Shown piece after piece: positions 2,613 to 35,980 of a DNA stretch of 64,000 nt (position 1 is its first letter; each line of letters starts with the position of its first letter). Origin of the DNA: Candidatus Saccharimonadota bacterium (lineage in GTDB: Bacteria; Patescibacteriota; Saccharimonadia; Saccharimonadales; SZUA-47); contig CP065013.1 of NCBI GenBank assembly GCA_016700315.1, positions 917,298 to 981,297 of the forward strand, written 5' to 3'. The notes below the pieces were generated by a model. It was not told where the DNA came from, made no database searches, and saw only the letters and a program-made list of their open reading frames with translations. Both the position numbers and the translations under genes were made by a program.

Positions 2613-3533
2613 ATGAAACAAATCAAGAGACATAAAAAACAGAAGATGTCGATATTTTTGGTATTTTTAGGCTTTTTAGGGCTAATACTACTGATGGCCT
2701 ACTTCCTGGCTGGTCAAGATGTGGCGCTATTACAGCCTAAAGGTTTTATATCCCACGAACAATTCAAATTGTCGATGACGGTCTTAGCAATTGTTTTAGC
2801 AATTGGGATTCCCTCTGTGGGATTGCTATATTTAATTGTCTGGCGATACCGTGATACCAACACCAAGGCCACTCGCGAAACAGAATCAGAACGCAGTGCG
2901 CTATTCCTGTTTGTGCTTTGGATGATACCAATTAGCGTCGGGGTACTTATTTCACTGATAGTTTGGGAGTCTACCCACCGCCTAGCACCACAAAAACCAA
3001 TTAGTGAGATCGAAAAACCTCTGGTGGTTAAGGTTGTTGCGATGCGTTGGAAATGGTTATTCCTTTACCCAGAGCAGCAAATCGCTTCGCTGAACTACGT
3101 TCAAATTCCCGAAAACACACCCGTTAGGTTTGAGGTAACGGCCGACGATGCGCCTATGACCTCTTTTTGGATACCGCATTTGAGCGGGCAAATATACTCA
3201 ATGACAGGACATGTTAATAGAATCAACGTAATGGGTACCGAAGTAGGTGACTATACTGGTAGCACCCCTGAGATTAATGGTGAAGGATTCGCTGGAATGA
3301 GATTTAAAACCCGTGTTAGCTCGGCGCAAGACTTTGAGGCATGGGTAATTAGTACAAAAGCTAATAACAACACCCTTTCTTTAAGTAAATATGATGAACT
3401 ACTACTGCCAACCGAAAAAACGGACAGTGTTTTTTACGCAAGCTATGATCAAAATCTCTATGATAAAATGCTTATGAAATACATGTCGATGCACGGCGAC
3501 GACAGCGAAACTAATCACGAAGGGCACCATTGA
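2613..3533 (+). CDS. cyoA: cytochrome o (bo3-type) quinol oxidase subunit II
   Basis: Two N-terminal TM helices plus a cupredoxin-fold periplasmic domain (VVAMRWKWLFLYPEQ..., VRFEVTADDAPMTSFWIPHLSGQIY). First gene of a four-gene oxidase operon. Its stop overlaps the next start. Confidence 0.85.
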   Translation: MKQIKRHKKQKMSIFLVFLGFLGLILLMAYFLAGQDVALLQPKGFISHEQFKLSMTVLAIVLAIGIPSVGLLYLIVWRYRDTNTKATRETESERSALFLFVLWMIPISVGVLISLIVWESTHRLAPQKPISEIEKPLVVKVVAMRWKWLFLYPEQQIASLNYVQIPENTPVRFEVTADDAPMTSFWIPHLSGQIYSMTGHVNRINVMGTEVGDYTGSTPEINGEGFAGMRFKTRVSSAQDFEAWVISTKANNNTLSLSKYDELLLPTEKTDSVFYASYDQNLYDKMLMKYMSMHGDDSETNHEGHH

Positions 3534-5617
3534 GAGAATTTTTAATCGGTAAGCTAGACGGCAATTCATTGCCTCACGAGTGGTTCACAATTGGTGGAAC
3601 GGCTGCCTTCGTTTTAATGATGCTATTGATTGCTGGCTATCTCACTTACAAAAAACGCTGGAAATGGCTATGGAAAGAATGGTTAACATCTGTTGATCCC
3701 AAAAAAATTGGCATAATGTATTTCATAGTCGGCGGATTTATGCTTTTGCGCGGAATCCTTGACGCACTAATGATTTGGCTGCAGCAATCTCTAGCAGCTG
3801 GTGCCTCTCATGGCTACCTATCTTCTGAACACTTTCAGGAAATATTTACGGCTCATGGCAATATCATGGTCTTTTTTGTGGCCATGGCTTTTATTTTTGG
3901 GCTGATAAACTACATAGTACCCCTCCAGATTGGCGCGCGAGATCTGGCTTCTCCATTCATGAATACATTAGGCTTTTGGCTGTTTGTCGGCGGCGTGGTG
4001 ATGGTGAATATGTTTTTCCTTTTTGGCGGACAATACGCTGCAACCGGCTGGCTGGCTGTAGCACCACTTTCCGGAAAGGAGTTTAGCCCTGGGGTCGGGG
4101 TCGATTATTGGATATGGAGTTTACAGATTTCAGGTATTGGTACGACTCTCGGCGCGATTAACTTCATAATGACAATATTAAAAATGCGTGTAAAAGGAAT
4201 GACGCTGTGGAAGATGCCGGCTTTCACCTGGGGATCTCTATGCAGCATGTTAATGGCAGCAACTATTTTTCCAATTCTTACCATGACGCTTTTTTTAGTC
4301 TTTTTTGATCGCTACTTAGGCACTCACTTTTTTACGACAACTGCCGGTGGTAACGCCATGCTATATTCAAACCTGATTTGGATGTGGGGACATCCGGAAG
4401 TCTATGTATTAATTTTGCCAGCATATGCTATTTTCTCTGAGATAGTTGCAGTATTTAGTCGCAAACCGGTGGCTAATTATAAATCAAACGTTTTTGGTCT
4501 TATTGGCGTCGCGTCGCTATCACTCGTAGTTTGGTTACATCACTTCTTCACTATGGGTTCGAGTGCCGATGTTAATGCCTTCTTCGGTATAATGACGGTT
4601 TTCGTCGCCATACCAACAACTGTTCTGGTTTTTAACTGGATAGCTACAATGTACAAGGGACGGATTAGGCTAGACACACCCATGCTCTGGTTTCTGGGTT
4701 TTGCCGGCGTCTTTGCTATCGGCGGCATAACTGGAGTCTTATTGGCTGTTCCTTCAATTGATTTCCAGCTACACAATAGCCTATTTTTGGTGGCTCATTT
4801 TCACTCGACGGTTATCGGCGGAGTAGTGTTCGGGGTATTCGCCGGTATATCATATTGGTTCCCAAAATTTACAGGATTCAGACTAAATGAGCGTTTAGGA
4901 AGATATGCCTTTTGGCTATGGATTGTTGGTTACTTTATGTCCTTTGTACCGATGTTTATTTTAGGTCTGATGGGCGCTTCAAGAAGATTAGACCATTATG
5001 ATGCTTCGACCGGCTGGCAACCATTTTTCATTGTTTCGTTGATCGGTGGCATAGTTATCACTGCTGGGGTTACCATGCAAGTAGTGCAAATTATAGCTAG
5101 TTTTATAGAGAAGAAGCGTTTGATGGATACTACAGGAGACCCTTGGGACGCCCGCACGCTAGAGTGGTCAGTAGCATCACCAGCTCCAGCCTACAACTTC
5201 GCCGCGCTTCCTGACGTAAGTGAACGCGACGGTTTCTGGGCAATGAAACAAACTGGGCTACAAAAGCCGACATACGAAGATATTCATATGCCCAAAAATA
5301 CCGCAAGCGGCATATACCTATCTATCTACGCATTCTTAACTGGTTTTGGTTTTGTGTGGGATATTAAGTGGCTGATTATCGTCGGTATTGTTGGAATGAT
5401 ATACACGTTTATCACTCGGACCTTTGATGAAGACTCGGAATACAAGATTGCAGCAAGCGATGTAGAAAAATCGGAGCAAGAACATTTTGTCAAGATGCAA
5501 GAAGTAGAGAAAAGCCGAGATCAGAGCAAGATCGGCCCTGAGTATGATATGGGCTTAAGTGACTTCATTAAGATCGTTTGGAAATGGTTGCTTGGCTTAG
5601 CGAGGCACAAAAAATGA
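3530..5617 (+). CDS. cyoB: cytochrome o quinol oxidase subunit I (heme-copper oxidase)
   Basis: 695 aa. Heme-copper oxidase motifs are present: WMWGHPEVYVLILPAYAIFSE, WLHHFFTMG, VAHFHSTVIGG. TTG start overlaps the cyoA stop. Confidence 0.95.
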   Translation: MREFLIGKLDGNSLPHEWFTIGGTAAFVLMMLLIAGYLTYKKRWKWLWKEWLTSVDPKKIGIMYFIVGGFMLLRGILDALMIWLQQSLAAGASHGYLSSEHFQEIFTAHGNIMVFFVAMAFIFGLINYIVPLQIGARDLASPFMNTLGFWLFVGGVVMVNMFFLFGGQYAATGWLAVAPLSGKEFSPGVGVDYWIWSLQISGIGTTLGAINFIMTILKMRVKGMTLWKMPAFTWGSLCSMLMAATIFPILTMTLFLVFFDRYLGTHFFTTTAGGNAMLYSNLIWMWGHPEVYVLILPAYAIFSEIVAVFSRKPVANYKSNVFGLIGVASLSLVVWLHHFFTMGSSADVNAFFGIMTVFVAIPTTVLVFNWIATMYKGRIRLDTPMLWFLGFAGVFAIGGITGVLLAVPSIDFQLHNSLFLVAHFHSTVIGGVVFGVFAGISYWFPKFTGFRLNERLGRYAFWLWIVGYFMSFVPMFILGLMGASRRLDHYDASTGWQPFFIVSLIGGIVITAGVTMQVVQIIASFIEKKRLMDTTGDPWDARTLEWSVASPAPAYNFAALPDVSERDGFWAMKQTGLQKPTYEDIHMPKNTASGIYLSIYAFLTGFGFVWDIKWLIIVGIVGMIYTFITRTFDEDSEYKIAASDVEKSEQEHFVKMQEVEKSRDQSKIGPEYDMGLSDFIKIVWKWLLGLARHKK

Positions 5618-6201
5618 ATCATGTAGAGTCGCACGAAGAAGCTTCAACCGACCGAGTGATGTTTGGCTTTTGGATCTATCTTATGACCGACCTCCTTATG
5701 TTCGCTGCGCTGTTTGCTGTTTTTGCTGTACTGCGTAACAATACGGCGGGCGAGCCCTCAGGGAAAGATATTTTTAGCCTACCGTTCGTTTTAATTGAGA
5801 CGTTGATACTTCTTACCAGCAGTTTTACCTGTGGCCTTGGCATGATTGCTGCACGAAACAAGGATAAAGCTAAAGTAATGCTTTGGTTCGGTGTAACCAT
5901 GCTACTTGGTTTAATATTCTTAACACTTGAAATTAAAGAATTTAGTACCATTCTTCACGAAGGGCATAGTTGGCGCGACAGTGCCTTTTTGTCTTCATTT
6001 TTTGTGCTTGTTGGCACTCATGGACTGCATATTACATCTGGCATACTGTGGTTGGCAGTTACTTTACGCTACATTGCACGCCAGGGCCTGAATCATCATA
6101 AGATTCGAAAGCTGGCACTCATTAGTTTATTTTGGCACTTTTTGGACATCGTTTGGATTTTTATCTTCACGGTAGTTTATTTAATGTCATTCATAAATTG
6201 A
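5614..6201 (+). CDS. cyoC: cytochrome o quinol oxidase subunit III
   Basis: COX3-like five-TM protein (FFVLVGTHGLHITSGILW, FWHFLDIVWIFIFTVVY). Start chosen at the ATG forming an ATGA overlap with the cyoB stop; the ORF-track start is 5578. Confidence 0.88.
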   Translation: MNHVESHEEASTDRVMFGFWIYLMTDLLMFAALFAVFAVLRNNTAGEPSGKDIFSLPFVLIETLILLTSSFTCGLGMIAARNKDKAKVMLWFGVTMLLGLIFLTLEIKEFSTILHEGHSWRDSAFLSSFFVLVGTHGLHITSGILWLAVTLRYIARQGLNHHKIRKLALISLFWHFLDIVWIFIFTVVYLMSFIN

Positions 6202-6210
6202 GGCTGAGGT

Positions 6211-6885
6211 ATGAGAAGTCACGAACACAAATCTTCGCACGGTAGCATAAAATCATATGTAGTTGGCTATCTTCTTTCGCTAGCATTTACATTGGTTCCT
6301 TACTATATGGTTAGGTCCGGCGGTATGACCGGCCAAAAATTATTGATTACTGTTTTGGCTTTTGCCTTCATACAAATGTTTATCCAGATATTTTTCTTTC
6401 TTCACCTTGGTCGCGGGCCAAAGCCTTTTTATAATGTTATATTTTTCACTGCTACATTCGGTATGATTTTGGTCGTGGTCTTTGGTTCGATATTCATCAT
6501 GGACAATCTTTATCGCAACATGAGTCCTGCTGAGGTGACCACAAAAATTGGCGAAAAAGAAGGTATCGCCGAAATTGCTGGCAAGAAAACAGGTGGATGC
6601 CAAGGTTTAGGCGTTAACCACAAAGCTGTAATAAAAGACGAGCTAGTCACTCCAGATCATATTCATGCGGTTTTATGCGACACGCTGACGATTACCAATC
6701 TTGACAGCATCAACCGCGAAATAACTTTCGGCGAGCACGAAAACCACGAAGCCTATGGTGGTGTATACGAGATATCACTAGCGGCTGGTAGGTCTAAAAC
6801 CATAACCCTCAACACTGCGGGGCAGTATAAGTTTCACGATCACGTAGACCCAACTGTTGGTGCGTTCTTTACTGTAGAGAAGTAA
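6211..6885 (+). CDS. cyoD: cytochrome o quinol oxidase subunit IV fused to a C-terminal soluble cupredoxin-like domain
   Basis: The N-terminal ~110 aa is a three-TM CyoD-like segment (HGSIKSYVVGYLLSLAFTLVPYY). The C-terminal ~105 aa is beta-rich with a cupredoxin-like pattern (LTITNLDSINREITFGEH...GQYKFHDHVDPTVGAFFTV). Confidence 0.75.
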   Translation: MRSHEHKSSHGSIKSYVVGYLLSLAFTLVPYYMVRSGGMTGQKLLITVLAFAFIQMFIQIFFFLHLGRGPKPFYNVIFFTATFGMILVVVFGSIFIMDNLYRNMSPAEVTTKIGEKEGIAEIAGKKTGGCQGLGVNHKAVIKDELVTPDHIHAVLCDTLTITNLDSINREITFGEHENHEAYGGVYEISLAAGRSKTITLNTAGQYKFHDHVDPTVGAFFTVEK

Positions 6886-6886: not shown

Positions 6887-7633
6887 CTAGTCCGGCTTTC
6901 GCAGCCATTTTACCCTACTCAGAAATGGCTCAAACAAATCTTCTTCTAGCGGTATGGCGATATTTTTTAGTTCTTCGTCGGTCGGTTCTCGGTCAGCAAA
7001 CTCTACATTATCTAACTCCGAAATGACAGCTAGTGGTGTCGATTCGCTGCCTTCGCCCATCACAAACACGCCTATGCCGGCTAGCCCGCCAACAATGTCA
7101 GCCTGCGAGACCTTAAAATCACGCCCAAAAAGATCTGGTGTGCCAACATAGTTATGGAGTGGATTAAAGCCGCTAAAACCTAACGCTATACCGCTTACGC
7201 CTCGTCTCATAGTTCTACAAGTACTATCCGTAATAACAACCCCGCAGTATTTAATTCCAAAGCGATGTTTGATATAAGCTCTCACCTCTGCAGCCGTACG
7301 TTGCGAGTCTTTTGGCCAAAGTATGTAGAAACCACCAGCGTTAGACTCGTCTATACCGGCATTAGGTATTAAGGTGTTATTTTTAATTGTAAAGTTTATA
7401 CCATACTTACTATGGGCCTCTAGCTGAGTAAAATCGGCATGCTCGGCCACAAAGGCCTGTTTATCTACTATAGTATTTTTTGCCACCACCGACCCTTCAC
7501 AAATCGCAACTATTTTTGATGTAATAGCCAGCACATTACCCTCTTTAAACTCAGTCAAATATTTATCTAGGAGTTCGGTTAAAGAGATTGATCCAGTACT
7601 TACTCGCTCGGTTTTTATTGCTACCGCTTTCAT
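6887..7633 (-). CDS. CofE-like gamma-glutamyl ligase family protein (F420-0:gamma-glutamyl ligase fold)
   Basis: 248 aa. NAGIDESN motif plus VVITDS and GIALGFSG segments are typical of the CofE/FbiB N-terminal-domain family. Confidence 0.7.
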   Translation of the reverse strand: MKAVAIKTERVSTGSISLTELLDKYLTEFKEGNVLAITSKIVAICEGSVVAKNTIVDKQAFVAEHADFTQLEAHSKYGINFTIKNNTLIPNAGIDESNAGGFYILWPKDSQRTAAEVRAYIKHRFGIKYCGVVITDSTCRTMRRGVSGIALGFSGFNPLHNYVGTPDLFGRDFKVSQADIVGGLAGIGVFVMGEGSESTPLAVISELDNVEFADREPTDEELKNIAIPLEEDLFEPFLSRVKWLRKPD

Positions 7634-8497: not shown

Positions 8498-8817
8498 TGG
8501 CAGGGGCAGTAGGAGTCGAACCCGAATAGTGCCAGTGGCACTATGAGTTCACGGGTAGATTGCTTATATGTTTAAAAGTCGTGTTTCGAATTGGTACATA
8601 CTTATCTGATTGTATGGCGCTATGGTTCGACTCTGTGATAAATCGTTCGATTGTTCGTGGCAGGGGCAGTAGGAGTCGAACCCGAATAGTGCCAGTGGCA
8701 CTATGAGTTCACGGGTAGATTGCTTATATGTTTAAAAGTCGTGTTTCGAATTGGTACATACTTATCTGATTGTATGGCGCTATGGTTCGACTCTGTGATA
8801 AATCGTTCGATTGTTCG
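8498..8817. repeat. two identical 160-bp tandem units, each starting (plus strand) with the 25-nt 3' end of tRNA-Trp
   Basis: Units 8498-8657 and 8658-8817 read identically. Each begins TGGCAGGGGCAGTAGGAGTCGAACC, the same 25 nt that begin the complement of the intact tRNA at 8818. Confidence 0.9.
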
Positions 8818-8892
8818 TGGCAGGGGCAGTAGGAGTCGAACCTACCTCTAAGGTTTTGGAGACCTTTATACTAGCCGATGTACTATGCCCCT
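8818..8892 (-). tRNA. trnW: tRNA-Trp (anticodon CCA), CCA-encoded
   Basis: The reverse complement folds as a cloverleaf. Acceptor AGGGGCA/TGCCCCT, D arm GTAC/GTAT, anticodon stem AAGGT/ACCTT with loop CTCCAAA, T arm GTAGG-TTCGACT-CCTAC, discriminator G, then CCA. Confidence 0.9.
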
Positions 8893-10417: not shown

Positions 10418-10525
10418 AACATGAGCTCTAAAACTTTAAAATTTTTTAGCTTTCATTTTTAGTATTTCTTTGGACTTAGTTCTTAGAATTTAGAATTTTT
10501 TCCCGCTTGTGTTTAAATATATGTA

Positions 10526-11632
10526 ATGGCATTCACAACAAACACCGAAGACGCTACGCTAGACCAGCAGCGCCTAAAAAGCCTCGTCAACAGCATGGCA
10601 GATGGCGTTATTGCCACTGATCAAAAAGGCACTATCGTGCTCTATAACGGCGCGGCGATGAACATTCTTGATCGCAACACAGAGATCAAGGGCAGAAAAA
10701 TCGGAAACGTCATCAAAACCATCAACGGCAAACACGAAGAAGTAGATTTCCAAAAAATGGTACTGGGAACAGAAACTCAAACCGCCAGCCGTGACCTCCG
10801 AATTGTTTATGAAGATGAAAGCCAAGTAAACTTATACACCAGCATCGCACCGGTACACTTAGGCTATGGCCAGCAAGGGGATCGAGGTTTTGTAATTCTA
10901 CTCCGTGACATAACTCATGAGAAATCTCTTGAAGAAGAACGTAACGAGTTTATTAGCGTTGTTAGTCACGAGCTACGCACGCCTATCGCCGTAACAGAGG
11001 GTATGATTGGTAACGCCGAATTTTTACTCGATAAATCATCAGATATAAATCAAATTAAGTCGATGCTCAAAAGCGCCCATGAACAAGTTTTATTCTTGGC
11101 TCAGATGATTAATGACCTTTCGACTCTATCTCGCGCCGAACGAGGCAAACTTCAGGCCGATAGGGAAATAATAAACATTACAGATCTGTTAAAAGATCTT
11201 CAGAAAAACTACGAGCAAAGCGCATTTGCCAAGGGGTTAAAACTATTCACAGAAACAGCACCAGATTTAGAAGTTTTATACTCGAGTAAACTATACGTCC
11301 GCGAAGTACTACAAAACTTTATTACAAATGCCATTAAGTACACCGAGACGGGTCACGTCAGTGTTTCTGCCAGACCTTACCAAGACGGTGTAGAGTTCCG
11401 GGTAAGCGATAGTGGCATTGGCATTGGCAAAGCCGACCGCGAAAAAGTTTTTGAAAAGTTTTTTCGAGCCGACAATAGTAAAACCCGCGAACAAAGCGGC
11501 ACTGGGCTGGGACTCTACGTCACTATGAAGTTGGCTAAGATACTAGGAGCAGATATATCTTTGGAGAGCCAGCTAGGCGAGGGGAGTACGTTTACGATAC
11601 ACGTACCGAACTTGCCAGAAAGTGGCGAGTAG
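10526..11632 (+). CDS. cytoplasmic PAS-domain sensor histidine kinase (no adjacent response regulator)
   Basis: PAS-like N-terminus (MADGVIATDQKGTIVLYN), HisKA H-box VSHELRTPI, and HATPase_c N/G boxes (NAIKYT, DSGIGI, GTGLGL). Confidence 0.9.
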   Translation: MAFTTNTEDATLDQQRLKSLVNSMADGVIATDQKGTIVLYNGAAMNILDRNTEIKGRKIGNVIKTINGKHEEVDFQKMVLGTETQTASRDLRIVYEDESQVNLYTSIAPVHLGYGQQGDRGFVILLRDITHEKSLEEERNEFISVVSHELRTPIAVTEGMIGNAEFLLDKSSDINQIKSMLKSAHEQVLFLAQMINDLSTLSRAERGKLQADREIINITDLLKDLQKNYEQSAFAKGLKLFTETAPDLEVLYSSKLYVREVLQNFITNAIKYTETGHVSVSARPYQDGVEFRVSDSGIGIGKADREKVFEKFFRADNSKTREQSGTGLGLYVTMKLAKILGADISLESQLGEGSTFTIHVPNLPESGE

Positions 11633-11903
11633 TTAGTAGTTAGTAGTAAGCGTAAAATTCTAAATTCTAAGCACTAAATTCTAAAATAGACCCTAGACCC
11701 TGGGCCCTGGTCCCTAGTCGGTACGGGGGTAATACTTGCTAACTACTAACTACTAACTACCAGTCCCTAGACCCTGGACCCTGGTCCCTAGTCCCTAGTC
11801 GGTACGGGGTTAATACTTGCTAACTACTACCAACTACCAACTACTAACTACTAGCCCATAGCTCTAATCACTCTAACCTCTAACCTCTAACCTAATCAAA
11901 GCT
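11633..11903. repeat. mosaic heptamer-repeat intergenic element, copy A (forward orientation)
   Basis: Consecutive blocks of 7-bp tandem units (TTAGTAG, ATTCTAA, ACCCTAG, CTAACTA, CTCTAAC). Also the conserved core AAGCGTAAAATTCTAAATTCTAAGCACTAAATTCTAAAATAGACCC. An internal ~68-bp direct duplication is present. Confidence 0.85.
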
Positions 11904-11910: not shown

Positions 11911-13404
11911 CTACTCAATCTCTGGCAATTTTGGCAGTACATGCATTATTGGCAAGCAAACGTTGCGACCCTTCCATTCGATTTGCCCAAATTCATATCG
12001 CCAGAGTGAAATCAGGCAGGTATATATGTCAACCAAAATTACCAGTGGAAAAATAACCGCCAACAAGGTTGCTACAGTTCGCCCAGTCACAACTGTGAAT
12101 AGTTTGTAAGAAATAATCGACCAGCATAATATAATGGTAATCGATAAAATTGCCCAAGACATAGGGATTGAAGAAATAAGTCCAGAGAGCAGTAGGGTAC
12201 TCGGTAAAAAGAACAGCCAGACCAAACTCATCAGATACAAAGCTACGTTCTCAGGCCTTTTTCGAAGCTGAGGATAGCGAAGACGTATACCCGTCTGATG
12301 TTGCTGCTTAGCAGTTTTATGGCTATGGGCTAGTTTTAGGTTGCGATTTGCCAAAAAATTATAAGAGTTTATAGCCGAGGCTTTACGAGCAAAAAACCGC
12401 TCAGGCATTACGCTATGAGATACGGCCTTAAAACCGCCCGCACCCAAAAAGCTTTTTTTCACCATCCAGCAAGATGAAAGTGCGGGTGGACGTTCTTTGT
12501 CCAAAAAACGGGGTAGCACAATTTCCCAGCCATAGCGAGCTGCCTGGAAGAACAGAGCTTGTTGAATGTGCCTCACTCTTCTTGGTAGCAAGCTGATCAT
12601 ATTTAACTTTTTTGAACACATGTAATTGATAAGGTCGGTTATTCCACCACTGTCAAACCTAATATCAACACCGCAAAAAAGTATATATTCACCCGTAGCT
12701 TCATCACTAAGCCGTTGATAAGCTGAATTTTTTGCCAACCAGCCATTCTCGGGTTCTTCTCCCTGAATAAAACGCACGCCTGCGTGGGCAAACTGCCTGA
12801 TTACTTCTGGGGTTTGATCGTGCGAGCAATCATCAAGCACCAAAACCTCAAGTTTAGGATAGTCGCTTTCCAGAATTGACTGGATACAGGCCGCCATGTC
12901 ATCAGTTTCGTTTCGGGCAGGTATGGCAACTGTCACTACGGGCACATCGTTGCCAGTTATGTCTACGTCTACAATCTTGGTTGGTCTAATATTATTCAAT
13001 AGGCTTTTTAGCATAAGGCATAGGCCTAGTAAACTGCTGCCTAACAGCAGCGGGACAAGAATGGTTGGCTGATTTACTACCAGATAAACAAGTAAAAACG
13101 AGATAATCTGTAGAATCGTTAGGCGCCAGCTGCTTCGACTGACTACTTTCTTTAGGTAGCCTTGGCCCATACGACCGTAACCAAAACGCATGATATTGAG
13201 CGCTCTAAAGAGGCTTACCGCAAATAGGATTGTGGTCGTCCAAGTTATATGATCAAAAAATATCCAAAAAGCACAGAACAATAAACAGAAGAGTAGGATT
13301 GAAGCCGACATTAGACGGTATATGGTTTTTTGATATTCAATTCTAGTCAGAATGAACTCCATTACAGCCTCGACGCCTAACAAAATATATACCGCTGCAA
13401 CCAT
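11911..13404 (-). CDS. polytopic membrane glycosyltransferase, family 2
   Basis: Central GT2 domain (VTVAIPARNETDDMAACIQSILESDYPKLEVLVLDDCSHDQT, ILFCGVD) flanked by multiple TM helices. 497 aa. Confidence 0.8.
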   Translation of the reverse strand: MVAAVYILLGVEAVMEFILTRIEYQKTIYRLMSASILLFCLLFCAFWIFFDHITWTTTILFAVSLFRALNIMRFGYGRMGQGYLKKVVSRSSWRLTILQIISFLLVYLVVNQPTILVPLLLGSSLLGLCLMLKSLLNNIRPTKIVDVDITGNDVPVVTVAIPARNETDDMAACIQSILESDYPKLEVLVLDDCSHDQTPEVIRQFAHAGVRFIQGEEPENGWLAKNSAYQRLSDEATGEYILFCGVDIRFDSGGITDLINYMCSKKLNMISLLPRRVRHIQQALFFQAARYGWEIVLPRFLDKERPPALSSCWMVKKSFLGAGGFKAVSHSVMPERFFARKASAINSYNFLANRNLKLAHSHKTAKQQHQTGIRLRYPQLRKRPENVALYLMSLVWLFFLPSTLLLSGLISSIPMSWAILSITIILCWSIISYKLFTVVTGRTVATLLAVIFPLVILVDIYTCLISLWRYEFGQIEWKGRNVCLPIMHVLPKLPEIE

Positions 13405-13994: not shown

Positions 13995-14537
13995 ATGACA
14001 AAACGATATGATACTAGCAAACAGTGGTACGCAATTCACACCTACAGCGGCTATGAAGAGAAAGTGGCTGAGTCAATACGCCAGCGCGCCGACTCACTAG
14101 ATATGAAAGATAAGATTTTTGCCGTTCTAGTGCCAAAAGAGAAGATGATCGAGATCAAGAACGGTAAGCGCAAAGTTGTCGAAAAGCGTATTTTCCAGGG
14201 CTATGTACTTGTTCAGATGAAAATGAGCGAAGATGCTTGGTATATTGTCAGAAACACACCAAGTGTTACCGGCTTTGTCGGCACAGGCACCGAGCCTAGC
14301 CCAGTAGAGCAAGATGAAATGGACAAAATTATGAAGCGCATGGGCAAAGAAGAGCCAAAACACAGGATGGATTATTCTGTTAGCGAAGTTGTAAGCATAA
14401 CTGATGGTCCATTCAAGGGCTTCGAAGGATCGATTGCCGAGGTTGACGAAGCTAAAGGCAAGCTTAAGGTACTGGTAAATATGTTTGGCCGCGAAACCCC
14501 AGTCGAGCTCGACGGCCTGCAAGTTAAGAAGGTCTAA
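13995..14537 (+). CDS. nusG: transcription termination/antitermination factor NusG
   Basis: WYAIHTYSGYEEKV (NGN domain) and a KOW motif (ITDGPFKGFEGSIAEVD). Start moved to the internal ATG at 13995 that follows the secE stop. Confidence 0.9.
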   Translation: MTKRYDTSKQWYAIHTYSGYEEKVAESIRQRADSLDMKDKIFAVLVPKEKMIEIKNGKRKVVEKRIFQGYVLVQMKMSEDAWYIVRNTPSVTGFVGTGTEPSPVEQDEMDKIMKRMGKEEPKHRMDYSVSEVVSITDGPFKGFEGSIAEVDEAKGKLKVLVNMFGRETPVELDGLQVKKV

Positions 14538-14576
14538 GATGTTTTCCGAAAAACATCTGAAAACATCATTGAAAGG

Positions 14577-14804
14577 ATGCCTTGGCAACTTGAAGAAGAT
14601 CTTGCAAGAGCTTTTTTTGCCAAAAATCCAGATAAAGTGGCGAGGATTGGACTTAGTGCAATTTCACTAGAATACACTACGAAACATGACGACAGAGCCG
14701 AAGAATACGCGGCAGTTTGGGATAGAGCTGCGGCAATGCTTAAAATGCGCGCCTTACAACCCGAACCTTTTCTTGACGACTACAGAATTCCACCACATCT
14801 ATAG
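14577..14804 (+). CDS. hypothetical 75-aa ORF between nusG and rplK (weak call)
   Basis: Open frame only. The SD-like GAAAGG abuts the ATG with poor spacing. No family recognised. Confidence 0.3.
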   Translation: MPWQLEEDLARAFFAKNPDKVARIGLSAISLEYTTKHDDRAEEYAAVWDRAAAMLKMRALQPEPFLDDYRIPPHL

Positions 14805-14945: not shown

Positions 14946-15374
14946 ATGGCAAAAGTAGTAAAAGCAAACCTCAAGATGAAACTAAAAGGCGGCCAGGCAT
15001 CGGCTGCGCCTCCAGTTGGTAGCACACTTGGTCAGTACGGCGTGAACATGATGGACTTTATCCAGCCTTTCAACGACCAAACCAAAGACATGATGGGTCA
15101 GGACGTAACAGTTCACATCCAGATTTTCGAAGACCGCACCATGGCTTGGCGCGTCGTCAGCACTCCAACTGATGTTCGTATCCTTAAAGAGCTTGGAGTT
15201 CAAAAAGGTTCGGGTGTACCCAACAAGGAAAAGGTTAGCAAGAAGCTCACTCAGGCGCAACTAACCAAAATTGCCGAAGAAAAAGCGATAGACATGAATA
15301 CCGACGACGTAGAGGCTGTCAAAAAAATGGTGGCTGGCACTGCCCGCAGCATGGGTGTAGAAGTCGAAAGCTAA
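14946..15374 (+). CDS. rplK: 50S ribosomal protein L11
   Basis: 142 aa. KLKGGQASAAPPVGSTLGQYGVNMMDF is the canonical L11 N-terminal motif. Confidence 0.95.
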   Translation: MAKVVKANLKMKLKGGQASAAPPVGSTLGQYGVNMMDFIQPFNDQTKDMMGQDVTVHIQIFEDRTMAWRVVSTPTDVRILKELGVQKGSGVPNKEKVSKKLTQAQLTKIAEEKAIDMNTDDVEAVKKMVAGTARSMGVEVES

Positions 15375-15376
15375 CC

Positions 15377-15661
15377 ATGTCTTCTAGAAGCTGGGGTCAA
15401 AGAGTTGAGCAGGGGCTTACACGCGCTAATGATTCCGAAAGAGATACTTTTATAAGAGTCTTCGGGCCACCGGATACCCGTATATCACTTCCTAGCGCTG
15501 CATTTTTTGGTAACTACCCCACAAGAGCGGACAATAGTAATCAAAATTCGCAATACACTCCCGAACAACTTAGTAGAGAGCTGAATATAGTTAACAGACT
15601 AAGACAAACGACTCCGCCAATTCTAGAACCCCCAGCTAAATCTGATTTTTCCAAAATCTAG
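15377..15661 (+). CDS. hypothetical 94-aa ORF inserted between rplK and rplA
   Basis: ATG 2 nt after the rplK stop with only a weak SD (GAAAG). No family recognised. Confidence 0.4.
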   Translation: MSSRSWGQRVEQGLTRANDSERDTFIRVFGPPDTRISLPSAAFFGNYPTRADNSNQNSQYTPEQLSRELNIVNRLRQTTPPILEPPAKSDFSKI

Positions 15662-15683
15662 TAGAGCCTTTTAGTGGAAATGA

Positions 15684-16013
15684 ATGCCCCACTGGCTTAC
15701 AATAAGCTTAATGAGTGTTGTCGAAAACTATAATGGCCAAGATGCTGGTGAGCCAGAAACTATACCAGGCATAGACGGCAAATATCTATTTACCGAGCAA
15801 CTCCGCACACTCGCTCATGCCGCAGTAGCGGCGTTCAATGAAGATAGACGAACAATGCCTAACAAATTTCTTGAATCAAACCTTCGTAGATTAGCAAATC
15901 AAACCCCTCCGAGCCATCAAGCACGATACTTTATGGATAAACTTGGACTTCCATATCTTATGGGTAAAGTCAGATACGATGACCACCACGCTAGCCGCAT
16001 GAATATCAGTTAG
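15684..16013 (+). CDS. hypothetical 109-aa ORF inserted between rplK and rplA
   Basis: Open frame with a weak SD. No family recognised. Confidence 0.4.
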   Translation: MPHWLTISLMSVVENYNGQDAGEPETIPGIDGKYLFTEQLRTLAHAAVAAFNEDRRTMPNKFLESNLRRLANQTPPSHQARYFMDKLGLPYLMGKVRYDDHHASRMNIS

Positions 16014-16223: not shown

Positions 16224-17201
16224 ATGGCCGAAACAAAAGCCGATCTAATCAAACAAGCAAAAGCGCTTGGCATTGAACACGTCAACGCCAACAACACCAT
16301 GGCAGAGCTACGCGAAGAAATCGCCAAAGCAGCCCCCAAAAAACACGACAAAGAAGCATTGCCTGTGAGCGATCACAAGGCAGAGTTTGCCAAAGCTGGC
16401 AAAAGAAGCGCCAAGGCTGTAGCCGAAAAAGAAGAAGCTCTGTCAAAGACAAATGAAGATGAGTCAACCGTTTCGCCCTCTAAAACTACGATCAAACCTA
16501 CCCGCACGCGTCTAGAACGAGCTGGTAAGAAAATGAAAGAGGCTGCCAAACTTATCGACAGGTCTAAAGAATACACCCTCAAAGAAGCACTTGAACTCGC
16601 CACCAAAACTAGTACCACCAAATTCGACTCAACGCTCGAGCTGCATATACGCTTAAACGTCGACCCACGCCAAGCCGACCAGAACCTTCGAGACAATCTT
16701 ATGTTACCCGAAGGAACTGGCAAGACTGTAAGGGTGGCTGTGTTTGCCGAACCTGACGATGCCAAAGCCGCCAAAGAAGCCGGCGCCGACATTGCAGGCG
16801 ACGAGGAGCTACTGGCTCAGCTCGAAAAAGGCATAATTAACTTTGATATTTTAATCGCTACCCCTAAAGTCATGGCAAAACTTGGTAAATATGCCCGCGT
16901 TTTGGGGCCAAAAGGACTCATGCCAAACCCAAAGAGCGGCACGGTTACACCTACTCCCGCCAAAGCAGTCGCAGAGGCAAAGGCTGGTCGAGTAGAGTAC
17001 CGAGTCGACTCAACTGGCATTATCCATGTAGGAGCTGGAAAAATTAGTTTTGGGGCTGTCCGGCTCGAGAAAAACGCTGCCGCAATTTTAGCAAGCATCA
17101 AGTCTAACAAGCCATCAAGTATCAAAGGTATTTACGTTAAGAGCATATACCTGACAACCACCATGGGCCCAAGCATCAAGGTTCTAAACTCCGAGCTATA
17201 G
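16224..17201 (+). CDS. rplA: 50S ribosomal protein L1 with ~95-aa N-terminal extension
   Basis: The C-terminal ~230 aa is canonical L1 (LPEGTGKTVRVAVFA, VLGPKGLMPNPKSGTVT, GRVEYRVDSTGIIH). The N-terminus adds an HeH/Rho_N-like motif KADLIKQAKALGIEHVNANNTMAELREEI and a Lys/Glu-rich linker. Confidence 0.9.
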   Translation: MAETKADLIKQAKALGIEHVNANNTMAELREEIAKAAPKKHDKEALPVSDHKAEFAKAGKRSAKAVAEKEEALSKTNEDESTVSPSKTTIKPTRTRLERAGKKMKEAAKLIDRSKEYTLKEALELATKTSTTKFDSTLELHIRLNVDPRQADQNLRDNLMLPEGTGKTVRVAVFAEPDDAKAAKEAGADIAGDEELLAQLEKGIINFDILIATPKVMAKLGKYARVLGPKGLMPNPKSGTVTPTPAKAVAEAKAGRVEYRVDSTGIIHVGAGKISFGAVRLEKNAAAILASIKSNKPSSIKGIYVKSIYLTTTMGPSIKVLNSEL

Positions 17202-17202: not shown

Positions 17203-17597
17203 AAAATACCGAACACTGAATACCGTATACATAGTACCTCGTACTCCGTACTGCGTACTGTTCAAATAGAGCCAAGAGCCATGATTAGGTTAGAGGTTAT
17301 AGGTTAGAGGTTAGAGTGATTAGAGCTATGGGCTAGTAGTAGTTAGTAGGTAGTAGTAGTTAGTAGGTTGTAGCTAGTAGCAAGTAGATATTACCCTACC
17401 GCGTACCCCGTACCGCGTACAGTTCAAGTAGAGCCAAGAACTAGGGTCTAGGGTCTAGGGTCTAGGGTCCAGGGTCTATTTTAGAATTTAGTGCTTAGGA
17501 TTTAGAATTTTACGCTTACTACCAACTACCAACTACTTACTACTACTCAAAGGTTCATACTTTATACATGATACTTAATACTTGATACTATCTAGTG
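17203..17597. repeat. mosaic heptamer-repeat intergenic element, copy B (reverse orientation)
   Basis: Reverse complement of the A/D module order: (AGGTTAG)n, AGTGATTAGAGCTATGGGCTAG, TAGTAGT blocks, GTACCGC blocks, CAAGAGC block, (CTAGGGT)n, then TATTTTAGAATTTAGTGCTTAGGATTTAGAATTTTACGCTT. An extra partial copy sits at the left end. Confidence 0.85.
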
Positions 17598-17600
17598 CTT

Positions 17601-17733
17601 AGACTTCAGGAATCACGCGTTTGCACCTTTTTGGCGAAAATCTCCGTTCCGCGCTCACTGTACGTTAAGTACGGCTCGGCTTTCGGTACTTGATTTTCAT
17701 CCGAAAATGCACTAAACGCGTAATTCCTGGAGT
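17601..17733. other. ~130-bp extended imperfect hairpin (ncRNA, bidirectional terminator or MITE-like element)
   Basis: CTTCAGGAATCACGCGTTTGCA pairs with TGCACTAAACGCGTAATTCCTGGAG, about 21 of 23 positions. Nested inner pairings are GGCGAAAATC/GATTTTCATCC and GTAC-GTTAA-GTAC. Confidence 0.5.
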
Positions 17734-17808
17734 TTAAGGTTTAAACGTTAACTATCTATAGATAATAAACTAACTAACGGTATCTCCTGAAATTAAGCTT
17801 ATTACCTT

Positions 17809-18080
17809 TTATCCGCCGACAATTGCACCCTCAGCAATGGTTAGGCTGGTAAGGTTCGGGTTACCATATATACTCCAAGTTTTTGCACCCTCAGCAATGG
17901 TTAGGTTGGTAAGGTTCGGGTTATCATATATACTCCAAGCTTTTGCACCCTCAGCAATGGTTAGGTTGGTAAGGTTCGGGTTATCATATATACTCCCAGC
18001 TTCTGCACCCTCAGCAATGGTTAGGTTGGTAAGGTTCGGGTTACCATATATACTCCAAGTTTTTGCACCCTCAGCAATGG
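17809..18080 (-). pseudogene. out-of-frame continuation of the LRR-repeat gene (4.5 further intact repeat units ending ...AEGAIVGG-stop)
   Basis: Translating the reverse strand in the shifted frame gives uninterrupted NPNLTNLTIAEGAKTWSIYG-type units down to the TAA at 17809-17811. The span 17809-19883 is 2075 nt, one nt short of a multiple of 3. Confidence 0.65.
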
Positions 18081-18470
18081 TTAGGTTGGTAAGGTTCGGG
18101 TTATCATATATGTCCCAGCTTCTGCACCCGCAGCAATGGTTAGGTTGGTAAGGTTCGGGTTATCATATATGTCCCCAGCTTCTGCACCCTCAGCAATGGT
18201 TAGGTTGGTAAGGTTCGGATTTTCACATATGCCCAGAGTTCTTGCACCCTCAGCAGTGGTTAGGCTGGTAAGGTTCGGGTTACCATATATACTCCAAGTT
18301 TTTGCACCCTCAGCAATGGTTAGGTTGGTAAGGTTCGGGTTATCATATATACTCCCAGCTTCTGCACCCTCAGCAATGGTTAGGCTGGTAAGGTTCGGGT
18401 TACCATATATACTCCAAGTTTTTGCACCCTCAGCAATGGTTAGGCTGGTAAGGTTCGGATATAGAAAAAT
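17815..18470. repeat. about 11 tandem 60-bp repeats encoding 20-aa LRR-like units
   Basis: The unit GCACCCTCAGCAATGGTTAGG(C/T)TGGTAAGGTTCGGGTTA(C/T)CATATATACTCC(A/C)AG(T/C)TT(T/C)T recurs with exact 60-nt phase, except for one 59-nt unit near 18112. Confidence 0.95.
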
Positions 18471-19883
18471 ATCATTTACCTCTGCTGCCGCTTCAACTGC
18501 TAGTTCTAGGTTTACGACAAAGCCTTTATCGTTATAGGTATAGTGGTAAGTATGGGTTGGACTACCTTTATCACCGTAAAGCACTAGCTCATGTCGGCCA
18601 TCAGCAAGGACTTTAATATTAGATCTGGTATCGTGATCAATCCCTGCTAGTTTACCCTGACCGTCTTTACTGACGTAGAGTGTTGGCGAGAGCATGTCGT
18701 AGTGACCTTTGTCTATTTTTGTTACTAGGCCGTTTTTGATGTGCTCATAATGACCTAGGTATACGTTGTCCTGTTCGTAGTAGTAATAGTGGATACCGCC
18801 GTCATTGTCTAATGTATAGTTGTCACCCAGTTTCGTATTTCCAAGCTTCATCAAATCATCACGCCCAACATGATGATAAAGTGCATGTCTTAGTCCGTGA
18901 GCAACAGCGTCAAGATCGTTGCTGTAAGTATTATCTGGGTTAGTGACTGTATGATTGTAGCGGTTTTTAATAGATACATGGTTGCCACTGCGGCTGATCT
19001 GTACCGACATACTGGATACTCCGTATGGGTCTTCACGGGTTGGTGCAAGCCTGATTAGATCATACCTATCAGTTTCAGGGTCGTACCTGTTTATGATACG
19101 AAGGTACTGCTTCCAGGCCTCGCTTAAGTTATCGGCAGTCAGCTCATTAGCCGGCAGAGTATCATCGGCATCGTTGTGACGCAGCCACATAATATGGTAC
19201 TGCTTTAGTCTCTCTGGTATTTCTTTAAAGGTGCAAAGCCTCTCGCCGCCTCTGTAATCACGCTCAAAGGCCGCTACTTCATCTACCAAGTTAAGCGGAC
19301 CATGAAGTTTGTAGCCTACCGACGCGGCTAGCTCGTATGGGTTCTTAGGCTCCGTCAGCCGAATCTCTCCCTGCTCATAGTAGTGTCTCTCTAAAATTGC
19401 GGCTATATAACTGTGGTTAGCTCGCAGTGTCTGTAGGGCCTGGTGGGGGTTGGGTATAATCTTCTTCAGCTGAAAAGCAAAGTCCAATTGTTCCATGTAG
19501 GGAGCTAATAACTCACGGGCACCGTTACCGGCATAGCTTCCGTCGCTATTAAGCTCGCCTTTAATAAACGAGTCGCCATACCAGTTATTTAGCCGGTTAG
19601 TGTTAGACCTTAATATCTTTTTTCTGGCTGCCTCTTCGGTGTCTAAAGTGACTGGTGTTTCTGTGTCTGATTGATGGCTTTCTGATCTGTCGGTTAGAGC
19701 AGTAGCGCCAAGCTCTCTAGAACTTAAGCACGGCGTACTCTCAGCTGTGCTTTCAAGATAAAACTGCGTACGTTTATCGCCAGCTGTACCTGGAACCATA
19801 ACGCCACTAATATCTCCAACACCTAACTCGGTTGTCGATAAGAACCCATAAATAGGTTGTTTAGTAAGTAAATCTCCGTGCAT
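18081..19883 (-). CDS. large cytoplasmic-type protein: unknown ~460-aa N-terminal domain plus C-terminal LRR-like 20-aa repeats (NPNLT(S/N)LTIAEGA...); frame ends prematurely inside the repeats
   Basis: 600-aa ORF. The repeats resemble BspA-type leucine-rich repeats. No signal peptide seen. The stop at 18081 follows a 1-nt deletion relative to neighbouring units. Confidence 0.75.
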   Translation of the reverse strand: MHGDLLTKQPIYGFLSTTELGVGDISGVMVPGTAGDKRTQFYLESTAESTPCLSSRELGATALTDRSESHQSDTETPVTLDTEEAARKKILRSNTNRLNNWYGDSFIKGELNSDGSYAGNGARELLAPYMEQLDFAFQLKKIIPNPHQALQTLRANHSYIAAILERHYYEQGEIRLTEPKNPYELAASVGYKLHGPLNLVDEVAAFERDYRGGERLCTFKEIPERLKQYHIMWLRHNDADDTLPANELTADNLSEAWKQYLRIINRYDPETDRYDLIRLAPTREDPYGVSSMSVQISRSGNHVSIKNRYNHTVTNPDNTYSNDLDAVAHGLRHALYHHVGRDDLMKLGNTKLGDNYTLDNDGGIHYYYYEQDNVYLGHYEHIKNGLVTKIDKGHYDMLSPTLYVSKDGQGKLAGIDHDTRSNIKVLADGRHELVLYGDKGSPTHTYHYTYNDKGFVVNLELAVEAAAEVNDIFLYPNLTSLTIAEGAKTWSIYGNPNLTSLTIAEGAEAGSIYDNPNLTNLTIAEGAKTWSIYGNPNLTSLTTAEGARTLGICENPNLTNLTIAEGAEAGDIYDNPNLTNLTIAAGAEAGTYMITRTLPT

Positions 19884-25588: not shown

Positions 25589-25665
25589 AGAGACAAGAGA
25601 TAAGAGACAAGAGATAAGAATACATTACTTCTCTTGCTCGTGACTCGCGACTCATAACTCTATTT
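25589..25665. repeat. period-7 arrays in the rplJ leader
   Basis: GAGACAA GAGATAA GAGACAA GAGATAA, followed by CTCTTGC TCGTGAC TCGCGAC TCATAAC TCTATTT. The two blocks are partly complementary. Confidence 0.75.
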
Positions 25666-26192: not shown

Positions 26193-26204
26193 AGGCCAAA
26201 AAGA

Positions 26205-26260
26205 ACGATTAACGATTAAGGATTTACTTCTTTAATCATTCATCACAAATCATTAATCGA
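26205..26260. repeat. period-7 array (CGATTAA / TCATTAA type) between rplJ and rplL
   Basis: ACGATTA ACGATTA AGGATTT ... TAATCAT TCATCAC AAATCAT TAATCG. The left and right halves are partly complementary. Confidence 0.7.
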
Positions 26261-27533: not shown

Positions 27534-27598
27534 GTGAAACTAGGCTTAATTTTCAATTATCAATTTACAATTTTTCAAAACAAGGAGAATAAAATTAC

Positions 27599-35948: not shown

Positions 35949-35980
35949 AGTGGACCAGTTTTCAATTTTCAAAGAATCTT

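Follow-up and report, generated by a model that had tools for sequence, protein, structure and literature searches.

An ordered mosaic of tandem heptanucleotide blocks dispersed between the genes of a Candidatus Saccharimonadota bacterium

Bacterial repeats made of tandem heptanucleotides, an old puzzle as to both cause and function, have been on record since 1990. The cyanobacterial families STRR1–3 have the consensus heptamers CCCCAGT, TTGGTCA and CAACAGT. According to the summaries of Mrazek (2007) given in PMC4679880 and PMC4692102, heptamers are the most over-represented of the long simple sequence repeats (LSSRs), and polymerase slippage was proposed to account for them. Here, we describe four intergenic tracts in a 64-kb stretch of a Candidatus Saccharimonadota genome (GCA_016700315.1, contig CP065013.1, positions 917,298–981,297; hereafter the window, 64,000 nt). 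The tracts contain an element of ~150–300 nt, present at several intergenic sites and composed of short segments, each tandem in 7-nt register. Its arrays gain and lose whole 7-nt units, multi-block super-units of ~80–150 nt duplicate, and copies exchange modules. Among all the sequence examined, both this mosaic and a general excess of small heptamer arrays are confined to one species-level lineage.

Several other heptamer families provide points of comparison. The G-quadruplex-forming heptamers GGGAATC of Xanthomonas and GGGGA(C/T)T of Nostoc were described by Rehm et al. (2015, PMC4692102), and no function was found for them. Marine Beggiatoaceae carry TAACTGA repeats (MacGregor 2015, PMC4679880), Nostoc PCC 7120 has heptamers (TTTTGAA) close to start codons (bioRxiv 10.1101/2022.06.06.494920), and Geobacter metallireducens contains 49 multicopy elements with four tandem heptanucleotides, GGACCGG ×4 (PMC2700814). 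Among dispersed repeats of a different kind, REP units are RAYT-linked imperfect palindromes of 20–40 bp with a stem of 5–13 bp, a loop of 2–20 and a GTAG/CGTC tag (PMC3733652).

Four copies of one ordered mosaic

The four tracts, copies A (11626–11903), B (17203–17597), C (33889–34345) and D (55006–55310), form one non-coding family. A 23-nt core, AAGCGTAAAATTCTAAATYCTAA, has exactly four exact matches in the window, against a chance expectation of 0.01; copies A and D have it on the + strand (11648 and 55046), copies B and C on the − strand (17495–17517 and 34279–34301). Once set in one orientation, the tracts share a common module order in a MAFFT alignment, and the paralogs are ~85–95% alike across the non-repeat segments. 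With copy D as the query, nhmmer recovers B at E=9e-50, C at 6e-36 and A at 5e-17. The searches with D and B against the window and ~130 further loci, with E-values of 1e-17 to 1e-50 overall, match only at the four sites and at their same-species orthologs, which rules out that the copies align no better than shuffled low-complexity sequence. An earlier note on this DNA, written from the letters without database searches, had proposed a single family with ordered modules and a defined polarity, occurring in both orientations, and the core matches, the alignment and the profile searches confirm it. The mosaic is real and reproducible, not an artefact of chance or low complexity, with the exception of a poly-G patch in copy C.

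In the orientation of A and D, block 1 (TAGTAGT/TTAGTAG/TTGGTAG) is followed by the core as block 2, itself a degenerate (AAATTCT)n heptamer array, and then by (ACCCTRG)n as block 3. Block 4 consists of (CTCTTGG/CTCATGA)n and CTCTATTTGAAC, block 5 of (GTACGCN)n and GTAATA, and block 6 of (CTAACTA/CTACCAA)n, after which come block 7, CTAGYCCRTAGYYCTAATCACT, and block 8, (CTCTAAC)n. Every block of A–D is a tandem array of 2–7 units of 7 nt. B and C have extra modules outside block 8, and B also has (ATACTTG)n outside block 1. The orientation of the element is independent of the flanking genes, two copies being + and two −.

Copy D (+) is the simplest and most complete, with orthologs in L086, L089 and L092 (L numbers designate the loci compared). 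It lies between a UvrD/PD-(D/E)XK helicase–nuclease gene (52185–55004, +) and a VKOR gene (55314–55907, −), the stops of which both face it, and comprises TAGTAGT/TTGGTAG (55018–55045), the core (55046–55086), ACCCTRG (55087–55128), CTCTTGG/CTCATGA (55129–55169), GTACGCN (55170–55204), CTACCAA/CTAACTA (55205–55237), CTAGTCCGTAGTCCTAATCACT (55236–55257) and (CTCTAAC)×7 (55256–55306). Copy A (+; orthologs in L082 and L113) is found between the stops of a PAS/histidine-kinase gene (10526–11632, +), whose TAG stop is part of the first array of the copy, and a GT2 glycosyltransferase gene (11911–13404, −). Its blocks are TAGTTAG (11626–11647), the core (11648–11689), ACCCTRG (11687–11717), CTAACTA (11738–11762), a second ACCCTRG (11762–11800), CTACCAA/CTAACTA (11819–11851), CTAGCCCATAGCTCTAATCACT (11851–11872) and CTCTAAC (11871–11897). 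It lacks a CTCTTGG block and carries two copies of an 81-nt unit made up of the ACCCTRG, GTACG and CTAACTA blocks.

Copy B (−; ortholog in L093) follows the stop of rplA (16224–17201, +) and is convergent with a 600-aa open reading frame (ORF; 18081–19883, −). On the + strand it contains extra GTACNNC and AGAGCCA modules (17240–17283), GGTTAGA (17287–17316), a TAGTAG-type block (17334–17387), TACCGCG (17397–17420), CTAGGGT (17441–17478), the core (17475–17517), ACTACCA (17518–17547) and ATACTTG (17557–17589). Copy C (−; orthologs in L103, L105–L107 and L081) follows the stop of dnaB (32526–33887, +) and precedes a 398-aa gene of no assigned function (34404–35600, +). It includes (TAGTTAG)×6 at 34088–34132, the core at 34258–34301 and a CTACTNA block at 34299–34338, and several of its modules are duplicated. 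Internal duplications in A and C had been noticed before, as had the gene context, and both observations stand: A, B and D lie between convergent genes and C between co-directional ones. The remaining convergent junctions of the window overlap or measure ≤67 bp, so the mosaics fill every sizeable convergent spacer.

Two other features lie close to copy B. Directly beside it, a near-perfect 140-nt hairpin at 17598–17740 (RNA folding z = −7.6 for the + strand, −5.6 for the − strand) is single-copy in all the sequence compared, is kept in L093 and has no Rfam match. Situated downstream of the promoter-like core of copy B, this predicted fold could represent a small RNA or a long terminator. Further on, a 60-bp tandem repeat of 10.6 copies (17823–18458, 91% matches) overlaps the 3′ end of the ORF at 18081–19883 and extends ~260 bp beyond its stop. 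This ORF has no Pfam domain and may encode a variable repeat protein or else be a gene with a frameshift; an NCBI contig of a metagenome-assembled genome (MAG) terminates within the 60-bp repeat.

The tracts show all the hallmarks of the heptamer class, namely, tandem 7-nt units, an excess of period 7, intergenic location and unit-number polymorphism. As in the STRRs and the heptamer LSSRs, head-to-tail 7-nt units are over-represented, several heptamers occur in one genome, and the repeats are intergenic, sporadic in their phylogenetic distribution and variable in length among close relatives. What sets the mosaic apart from these is that ~8 heptamer blocks stand in a fixed order round a shared core and are dispersed as a unit in both orientations, and that the host belongs to the Patescibacteria (Candidate Phyla Radiation, CPR) and has a tiny genome. 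The published units STRR1–3 (at the consensus given above), TAACTGA, GGGAATC and GGGGAYT are absent from the window, and for STRR1–3 there is no tandem dimer in any rotation or on either strand, placing the tracts outside the named STRR, TAACTGA and GGGAATC families. With the G-quadruplex (G4) heptamers of Xanthomonas and Nostoc, the (CTAGGGT)n block shares a G3–loop4 pattern, usually in ≥4 units, an intergenic position near ORF ends and variation in length and sequence at conserved sites; it differs in its unit sequence, in being one of eight blocks and in that one ortholog has fewer than four G-runs. The small arrays of the window are placed like the repeats of Beggiatoaceae and Nostoc PCC 7120, a few nucleotides upstream of start codons. 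However, those organisms use essentially one heptamer, whereas the window uses 21, and the large mosaics lie at gene 3′ ends rather than 5′ ends. The Geobacter elements are likewise dispersed, multicopy and built on tandem heptamers, but each has a single four-unit block, they also occur inside genes, and they do not form an ordered multi-block mosaic.

In placement and mosaic logic, the bacterial interspersed mosaic elements (BIMEs) and REP clusters known from enterobacteria and pseudomonads come closest. BIMEs are ordered mosaics of short motifs in variable number that lie after stop codons and between convergent genes, in either orientation, with clustering and tandem reiteration. By contrast, the blocks described here are direct 7-nt tandem repeats without a short palindromic unit, and no RAYT gene lies within the window. 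The only palindromic feature is a long-range inverted repeat of 23–37 nt, and membership in REP/BIME is therefore rejected. So is a CRISPR array, which would have identical 24–48-nt repeats and unique spacers, whereas the units of the mosaic are 7 nt long and contiguous, with no spacers. Rfam gives no match in or near the tracts, the core included, at the gathering threshold or at E≤1. The earlier note had recognised no described repeat class; this is borne out for REP/BIME, CRISPR and the Rfam families, but not for tandem heptanucleotide repeats, a long-known bacterial class. As an analogy only, the hierarchy of unit, block, super-unit and element resembles that of eukaryotic higher-order satellites and minisatellites, with their slippage, unequal exchange and gene conversion, although these differ from the mosaic in scale, host domain and genomic role. 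We found no literature linking Saccharibacteria with heptamer repeats and none on an ordered multi-block heptamer mosaic dispersed as a unit, Elhai et al. 2008 (Nostoc) lying outside this comparison. The mosaic is an elaborate form of a known kind of heptamer repeat, not a categorically new system.

Sister strains, period 7 and relatives

Orthologous contigs, found via identical VKOR, L1, DnaB and kinase proteins, were drawn from NCBI, JGI, ENA and Logan assemblies. These independent assemblies carry the tracts at the same sites, which disposes of the concern that the tracts might be assembly artefacts, except for positions 34160–34180 in copy C. Contigs that run through the sites have the element at the same position with a different internal structure. 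Among the indels between orthologous copies, 68 of 125 (54%) are multiples of 7, against 14% expected, and the clean sets of gaps measure 7, 7, 7 and 21 nt (copy D of the window vs L086), 7 and 7 nt (another pair) and 7, 7 and 14 nt (L105 vs L107). Unit counts differ accordingly among strains, with GGTTAGA in three, four or seven copies, ACTACCA in two, three or four and TAGTTAG in five, six or seven, and they vary even among strains with identical flanking proteins. For example, the spacer after dnaB is 516 bp long in the window and 554, 582, 590 or 758 bp in strains with identical DnaB.

Larger modules vary as well. L089 has an additional duplicated module set at site D, site C of L103 (GCA_029781765.1) and L081 holds 1.5 elements, in which a copy-B-type ACTCAAAGGTTCATACTTTATACATGATAC... 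sequence is followed by a second core, and site B of L093 contains a (GTTTATG/GTTGATG) module typical of copy C of the window. In L104 (4600–7292, JGI), the element downstream of dnaB switches midway to the reverse-complement module order. Beyond the switch, which corresponds to window position 34161, lie genes for holin_4_2, HSDR_N_2 and exonuclease VII that are absent from the window; the contig may be chimeric, or two copies of opposite orientation may have undergone a real inversion. The movement of modules between paralogous sites and the inversion-type junction inside the L104 element agree with an earlier suggestion that the element is recombinogenic. At 34160–34180, copy C contains a poly-G run, GGGGGGCGGGGGGGGGGGAG, where all four of the other spanning strains have ordinary heptamer modules. 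Because every other strain has such modules and L104 diverges at the same point, the run is probably an artefact of sequencing or assembly. Most short-read contigs end 30–60 bp inside the element, as expected of a dispersed repeat, and in the data examined the tracts have probably given rise to one or more artefacts or rearrangements. All same-species strains that reach the sites carry a copy, and no empty allele came to light among them.

The preference for 7 nt extends beyond the mosaics. A strict self-match scan found 12 arrays at lag 7 and 0–1 at each other lag from 3 to 12, and all 12 fall in the non-coding 13% of the window. Tandem Repeats Finder (TRF) reports 47 period-7 rows in the 64 kb of the window and 29 in 643 kb from the 40 closest species representatives, a ~16-fold difference per kb, and the latter show no preference for period 7. 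Inside the elements, lag-7 identity is ~0.6 and falls to the background level by lag 42–49, and TAGs of different blocks stand in the same register in 8–35% of pairs, where chance would give 1/7 (14%). Since register is lost between blocks, these are independent local expansions and not parts of one heptad lattice. The exact 7-bp phase ascribed to the element thus holds within each block but not across the whole, and an element-wide 7-nt lattice or helical phasing is rejected, distant TAG pairs being near chance.

The large tracts are the biggest cases of a widespread habit, as many small heptamer arrays occupy other spacers. Six genes (atpG, recR, rplJ, rplL, metK and a member of the DHH family) have such arrays, built of unrelated heptamers, only a few nucleotides ahead of the start codon or ribosome-binding site; these arrays are identical in sister strains and absent from relatives with 92% and 86% DnaB identity. 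The recR-to-DHH spacer is filled by (CTGTTTA)×4 (36638–36666, +), and (TTACTAC)×4 (63819–63854, −) stands directly upstream of the ribosome-binding site of atpG. The latter was considered as a fifth mosaic copy at the window edge and rejected, since it is merely a four-unit array. Other small arrays are located at 35959–36008, 25589–25619, 26204–26258 and 27548–27574. An apparent deletion next to an (AACTACC)n array in strain L084 turned out to be a scaffold gap of Ns. A longer stand-alone array, (ACTACCA/TCTACCA)×8–9 (57635–57697, +), separates two co-directional − strand genes, PGA_cap (56329–57558) and MIP (57701–58444). Its unit family is that of the CTACCAA block, and nhmmer gives no match to it as a copy of the mosaic. 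In this spacer (57559–57700), a small perfect hairpin, TAGGGCTAGAtagaCTCTAGCCCTA, leads straight into the array and then ACGCTTA, a stretch that shares its unit family and a junction motif with the first block and core of the mosaic, arranged differently.

The close relatives comprise lineages P0005 (L115–L118; 92% DnaB identity) and P0006 (L121 and L122; 86%), and the gene order dnaX–dnaB–unknown–ybaB–recR is kept across relatives. The spacer downstream of dnaB measures 516–758 bp in this species, against 107 and 37 bp in the relatives at 92% and 86%, respectively, and mostly ~85–150 bp at 64–74% DnaB identity where the downstream gene is detectable. Empty sites in related species had been suggested as a check, and site C is indeed a short empty spacer in the 92%, 86% and ~73% relatives, though one too diverged for insertion boundaries to be defined. 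Neither the mosaic nor the small arrays before metK, recR and the DHH gene occur in the 13 kb of syntenic DNA of the 92% and 86% relatives, where TRF gives one weak period-7 row of 2.4 units in the former and none in the latter. In the recR–DHH spacer, the fourfold CTGTTTA of the window contrasts with a single CTGTTTA within a small hairpin in the 86% relative, as in-situ amplification predicts, in this one example. The exact core has no match in 185,579 species-representative genomes or in viral contigs; in JGI metagenomes it occurs in two contigs, both of this species and orthologous to A and C. The absence of the element and of the small arrays from the nearest sampled relatives indicates that the phenomenon arose recently in this lineage.

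On a wider scale, the distribution of the heptamer habit is patchy. Period-7 arrays are essentially absent from the 40 closest Saccharibacteria loci. Sporadic intergenic period-7 arrays of unrelated units were seen in other Patescibacteria and WOR-1 (L046, L047, L055, L057 and L060). A distant Saccharibacteria-labelled MAG (L053) has two inverted 80-nt hairpin-bearing copies, 95% identical and 7 kb apart (7415–7494 and 14535–14613), each ending in a short (AAAAACT)n array, with a (GTTCCCC)n array near one of them. This pair was rejected as a mosaic: each copy is a less complex hairpin element, and its single heptamer array is short.

Structure, promoter-like core and other features of the window

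Each copy contains an internal inverted repeat of 23–37 nt (84–96%) formed by the TAGTAG-type block 1 and the CTACTA-type block 6, with arms 86–296 nt apart and further modules outside them. The inverted repeat is predicted to fold into a 19–25-bp stem, so that the long hairpins envisaged from opposite-sense blocks are plausible as stems, but the folding energy of the whole element is unremarkable compared with shuffles (z = −1.3 to −1.6). An apparent copy-specific co-variation of the arms (TTAG/CTAA in A, TTGG/CCAA in D) was rejected by an all-vs-all arm matrix over 13 copies, which shows no diagonal dominance except for copy C. The ends of the element had been likened to degenerate terminal inverted repeats; all that they have in common is a TTAG..G pattern, which covers ~5 of the 7 positions of each unit, and the real inverted repeat is internal. 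By inspection, no target-site duplication was found at the boundaries of A or D, and those of B and C are ragged.

TAG is enriched 3–4-fold and CTAG 4-fold on both strands of the tracts, and the longest stop-free stretch in six frames is 26–47 codons, at or near the minimum of 300 shuffles. Description of the element as a frame-independent stop barrier is therefore correct, yet trivial, since stops in all frames follow automatically from TAG-bearing units at period 7. On the A/D-sense strand, C exceeds G (77:41, 81:51 and 130:74). No canonical intrinsic terminator (GC-rich hairpin with a U-tract) was found in any of the four tracts; elsewhere in the window, the riboswitch, the L10 leader and the region after rplL have clear ones.

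Read in the B/C sense, the core contains TTTAGA-N17-TAGAAT (with N18 in copy C of the window), the only promoter-like site in each tract. Its hexamers match 9 of 12 consensus positions of the sigma-70 type, and from its sequence the core looks like a sigma-70 promoter. Seven core positions vary, all of them outside the hexamers. Chance alone would produce this with a probability of ~0.1, so the lack of variation within the hexamers is suggestive and not significant. Moreover, the TTTAGA-N17-TAGAAT geometry arises automatically in a pure (TTTAGAA)n array of ≥4 units. In A (11657–11685, −) and D (55055–55083, −), the site is directed leftwards, antisense to the 3′ ends of the kinase and helicase genes, respectively; it points right to the 140-nt hairpin in B (17480–17508, +) and to the downstream gene in C (34263–34292, +, N18). 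The gene after C keeps a promoter-like site of its own, TCGTCA-N18-TATACT (34383–34412), to the right of the element. Solo core-like sequences are found at two further places. The first, TCTAGAATTTAGCATTTGAGATTTAGAAT (47923–47956, +), lies directly upstream of tRNA-Gln (47965–48039), where its TAGAAT ends 11 nt ahead of the 5′ end of the mature tRNA, and the second, (TTAGAAT)×2 followed by TTTTTTCCCGCTT (10483–10498, +), lies 28 nt upstream of the histidine-kinase start codon.

The closest DnaB proteins among the 185,579 species-representative genomes are those of Candidatus Saccharibacteria/Saccharimonadales MAGs, at ~73% identity. The window has a G+C content of 44% and ordinary housekeeping genes, including secE–nusG–rplKA, rplJL with its L10 leader, an S-adenosylmethionine riboswitch ahead of metK, dnaX–dnaB, ybaB–recR, and the ATP synthase and quinol oxidase operons. 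No gene for a transposase, recombinase or heptad-binding protein is among the genes of the window. Several of its other features are of separate interest. The haem-copper quinol/cytochrome oxidase operon (2613–6885; COX2, COX1, COX3 and COX4_pro) is complete and adjoined by a UbiA prenyltransferase gene. A perfect tandem duplication of 160 bp, in 2.2 copies (8498–8842), takes in the 3′ part of tRNA-Trp (8818–8892, −). Beside tRNA-Trp, sister strains L113/L114 (1–1307) have a gene for a 501-aa large serine recombinase, with no matching sequence in the window, and the site looks like an integration hot spot with att-like remnants. The ribosomal protein L1 encoded at 16224–17201 (325 aa) has an N-terminal extension of ~125 aa ahead of the L1 domain (residues 127–316), two small ORFs (94 and 109 aa) lie between rplK and rplA (14946–16013 region), and rplJL is ~8 kb from rplA, behind its own L10 leader. 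An ORF of 787 aa (21555–23918) combines thymidylate kinase and ThyX (Thy1) domains, according to precomputed Pfam matches of the identical gene in L123. Finally, two genes that are neighbours in the window (~29262–29502) are separated in one strain, L125 (4023–6744), by three additional ones: a 178-aa ORF, an ApbE gene and one resembling a ferric reductase gene.

Explanations and significance

We consider it probable, with some reserve, that the tracts are paralogous copies of a species-specific, non-coding, recombining higher-order heptamer microsatellite produced by 7-nt slippage and ectopic exchange. The driver would be a lineage-specific mutational regime that favours 7-nt slippage at any short repeat-prone sequence, the same bias as that behind the cyanobacterial STRRs and the heptamer simple sequence repeats of other bacteria. 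Copies would then persist where they are least harmful in a compact genome, just past stop codons and mostly between convergent genes. No selected function would be needed, and the copies are probably tolerated junk at gene 3′ ends. Their sigma-70-like geometry, G4-prone block, internal inverted repeat, six-frame stops and capacity to serve as rearrangement substrates would be by-products, open to co-option.

A number of points weigh against such a microsatellite. A streamlined genome of ~1 Mb would be expected to purge junk of 300–750 bp. Spread and homogenisation between sites by ectopic recombination or template switching, and not by a transposase, is a step that we infer, and the evidence base is the 64-kb window together with contig fragments. 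The core is much better conserved than the rest of the element, and both promoter-like hexamers are invariant, at a spacing of 17 (18) nt, in 14 of 14 paralogous and orthologous cores, which hints at selection. Every non-trivial convergent spacer of the window holds a copy. Canonical terminators, which the organism uses elsewhere, are lacking at all six flanking genes, and the element could serve instead. The four tracts account for all 12 canonical G4 motif starts of the window, each in the B/C sense and within (CTAGGGT)n; the sole G4 motif of copy C is the suspect poly-G run, and the copy-B ortholog of L093 has none. Co-option is accordingly the main uncertainty, the pointers to it being the invariant promoter-like core, the lack of ordinary terminators at the six flanking genes and the restriction of G4 motifs to the tracts.

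If these points reflect selection, the element might be a bidirectional transcription insulator or terminator that works without the classical hairpin and U-tract, through the TAGTAG/CTACTA stem, a G4-prone (CTAGGGT)n on one strand and the C-rich, G-poor, Rho-loading-like (CTCTAAC)n and (CTAACTA)n on the other. Such a function would account for copies A, B and D filling convergent spacers while other convergent junctions overlap or are at most 67 bp, and it fits the lack of canonical terminators in an organism that has clear ones, the excess of C over G in the A/D sense, the G4 motifs always on one strand and the predicted 19–25-bp stems. We nevertheless regard it as unlikely: the orientation relative to flanking genes is not fixed, so the same class of gene meets either strand of the element, close relatives cope with spacers of 37–107 bp at the same site, block lengths vary freely, one ortholog lacks the G4 motif, and the folding energy is no better than that of shuffles. 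A related proposal, to which we give somewhat less weight still, is that the element is a promoter cassette, the core being a working sigma-70 promoter with a transcript through the ACTACCA block that would serve the downstream gene in C, a small RNA including the 140-nt hairpin in B and antisense RNAs to the upstream 3′ ends in A and D. That TTTAGA-N17/18-TAGAAT is the sole promoter-like site per element, with invariant hexamers and all variation outside them, argues for it, as do the closely similar sequence at the right distance upstream of tRNA-Gln and the other one upstream of the kinase gene. But the consensus match is just 9 of 12, the geometry comes free with any (TTTAGAA)n array, and the sparing of the hexamers is within reach of chance; in addition, the sites in A and D would fire antisense into coding DNA, the gene after C retains its own promoter-like site, and the putative small RNA has no terminator.

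Dispersal in both orientations, an intergenic location, a site that is empty in related species and paralogs ~85–95% alike in non-repeat segments are also what a non-autonomous element resembling a miniature inverted-repeat transposable element would show, if it were mobilised in trans by a transposase encoded elsewhere. This idea, raised in the earlier note, we consider improbable. There are no terminal inverted repeats, the inverted repeat being internal, no visible target-site duplication at A or D and no transposase gene within the 64 kb; the ends are ragged, with modules of B and C extending past the ‘ends’ of A and D, no sister strain reaching the sites lacks a copy, and the core has no match on viral contigs. 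We find it very hard to believe that the tracts are binding-site arrays for a heptad-reading protein or RNA-binding ring that organises the nucleoid or regulates the flanking genes. Possible precedents are HutP, which on RNA recognises UAG triplets at 7-nt intervals, and the omega repressor of plasmid pSM19035, which binds 7-bp heptads of DNA. Locally the period is exactly 7, YTAG recurs at this interval on one strand in four of the eight block types, and heptamer-binding factors have been speculated upon in the literature for Nostoc and Beggiatoa. However, the 21-bp helical logic on which a phased array was first suggested fails, because register is not kept between blocks (8–35% of distant TAG pairs in phase vs 14%); the at least eight unrelated heptads would require several readers, unit numbers vary freely and differ between strains with identical flanking proteins, and the window encodes no candidate protein.

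The recombining heptamer microsatellite that we favour extends a long-standing puzzle to an ultra-small CPR/Patescibacteria genome, in which non-coding DNA is expected to be under strong deletion pressure, and adds an organisation for which we found no description, ~8 heptamer blocks in a fixed order that duplicate and exchange modules like a miniature higher-order satellite. On the practical side, the tracts break short-read assemblies of this organism, which bears on the binning and closing of Saccharibacteria genomes. The contrast within the lineage is sharp: every strain of the species has the arrays, and the 92% and 86% relatives, whose gene order is the same, have none, which opens their cause to comparative genomics. 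A bolder idea, which we hold only tentatively and with more doubt than confidence, is that a process amplifying DNA by steps of 7 nt recently became active across the genome of this species, the mosaics being its hot spots and the 92% relative showing none of it. Were this true, the species and that relative would form a natural contrast, in genomes of ~1 Mb, for finding the molecular cause of the heptamer puzzle, with a difference in replicase, primase or repair, or a heptad-reading factor, as candidates. It would also offer a case of de novo birth of regulatory DNA from slippage, (TTTAGAA)n giving rise to a promoter and (CTAGGGT)n to a G-quadruplex.

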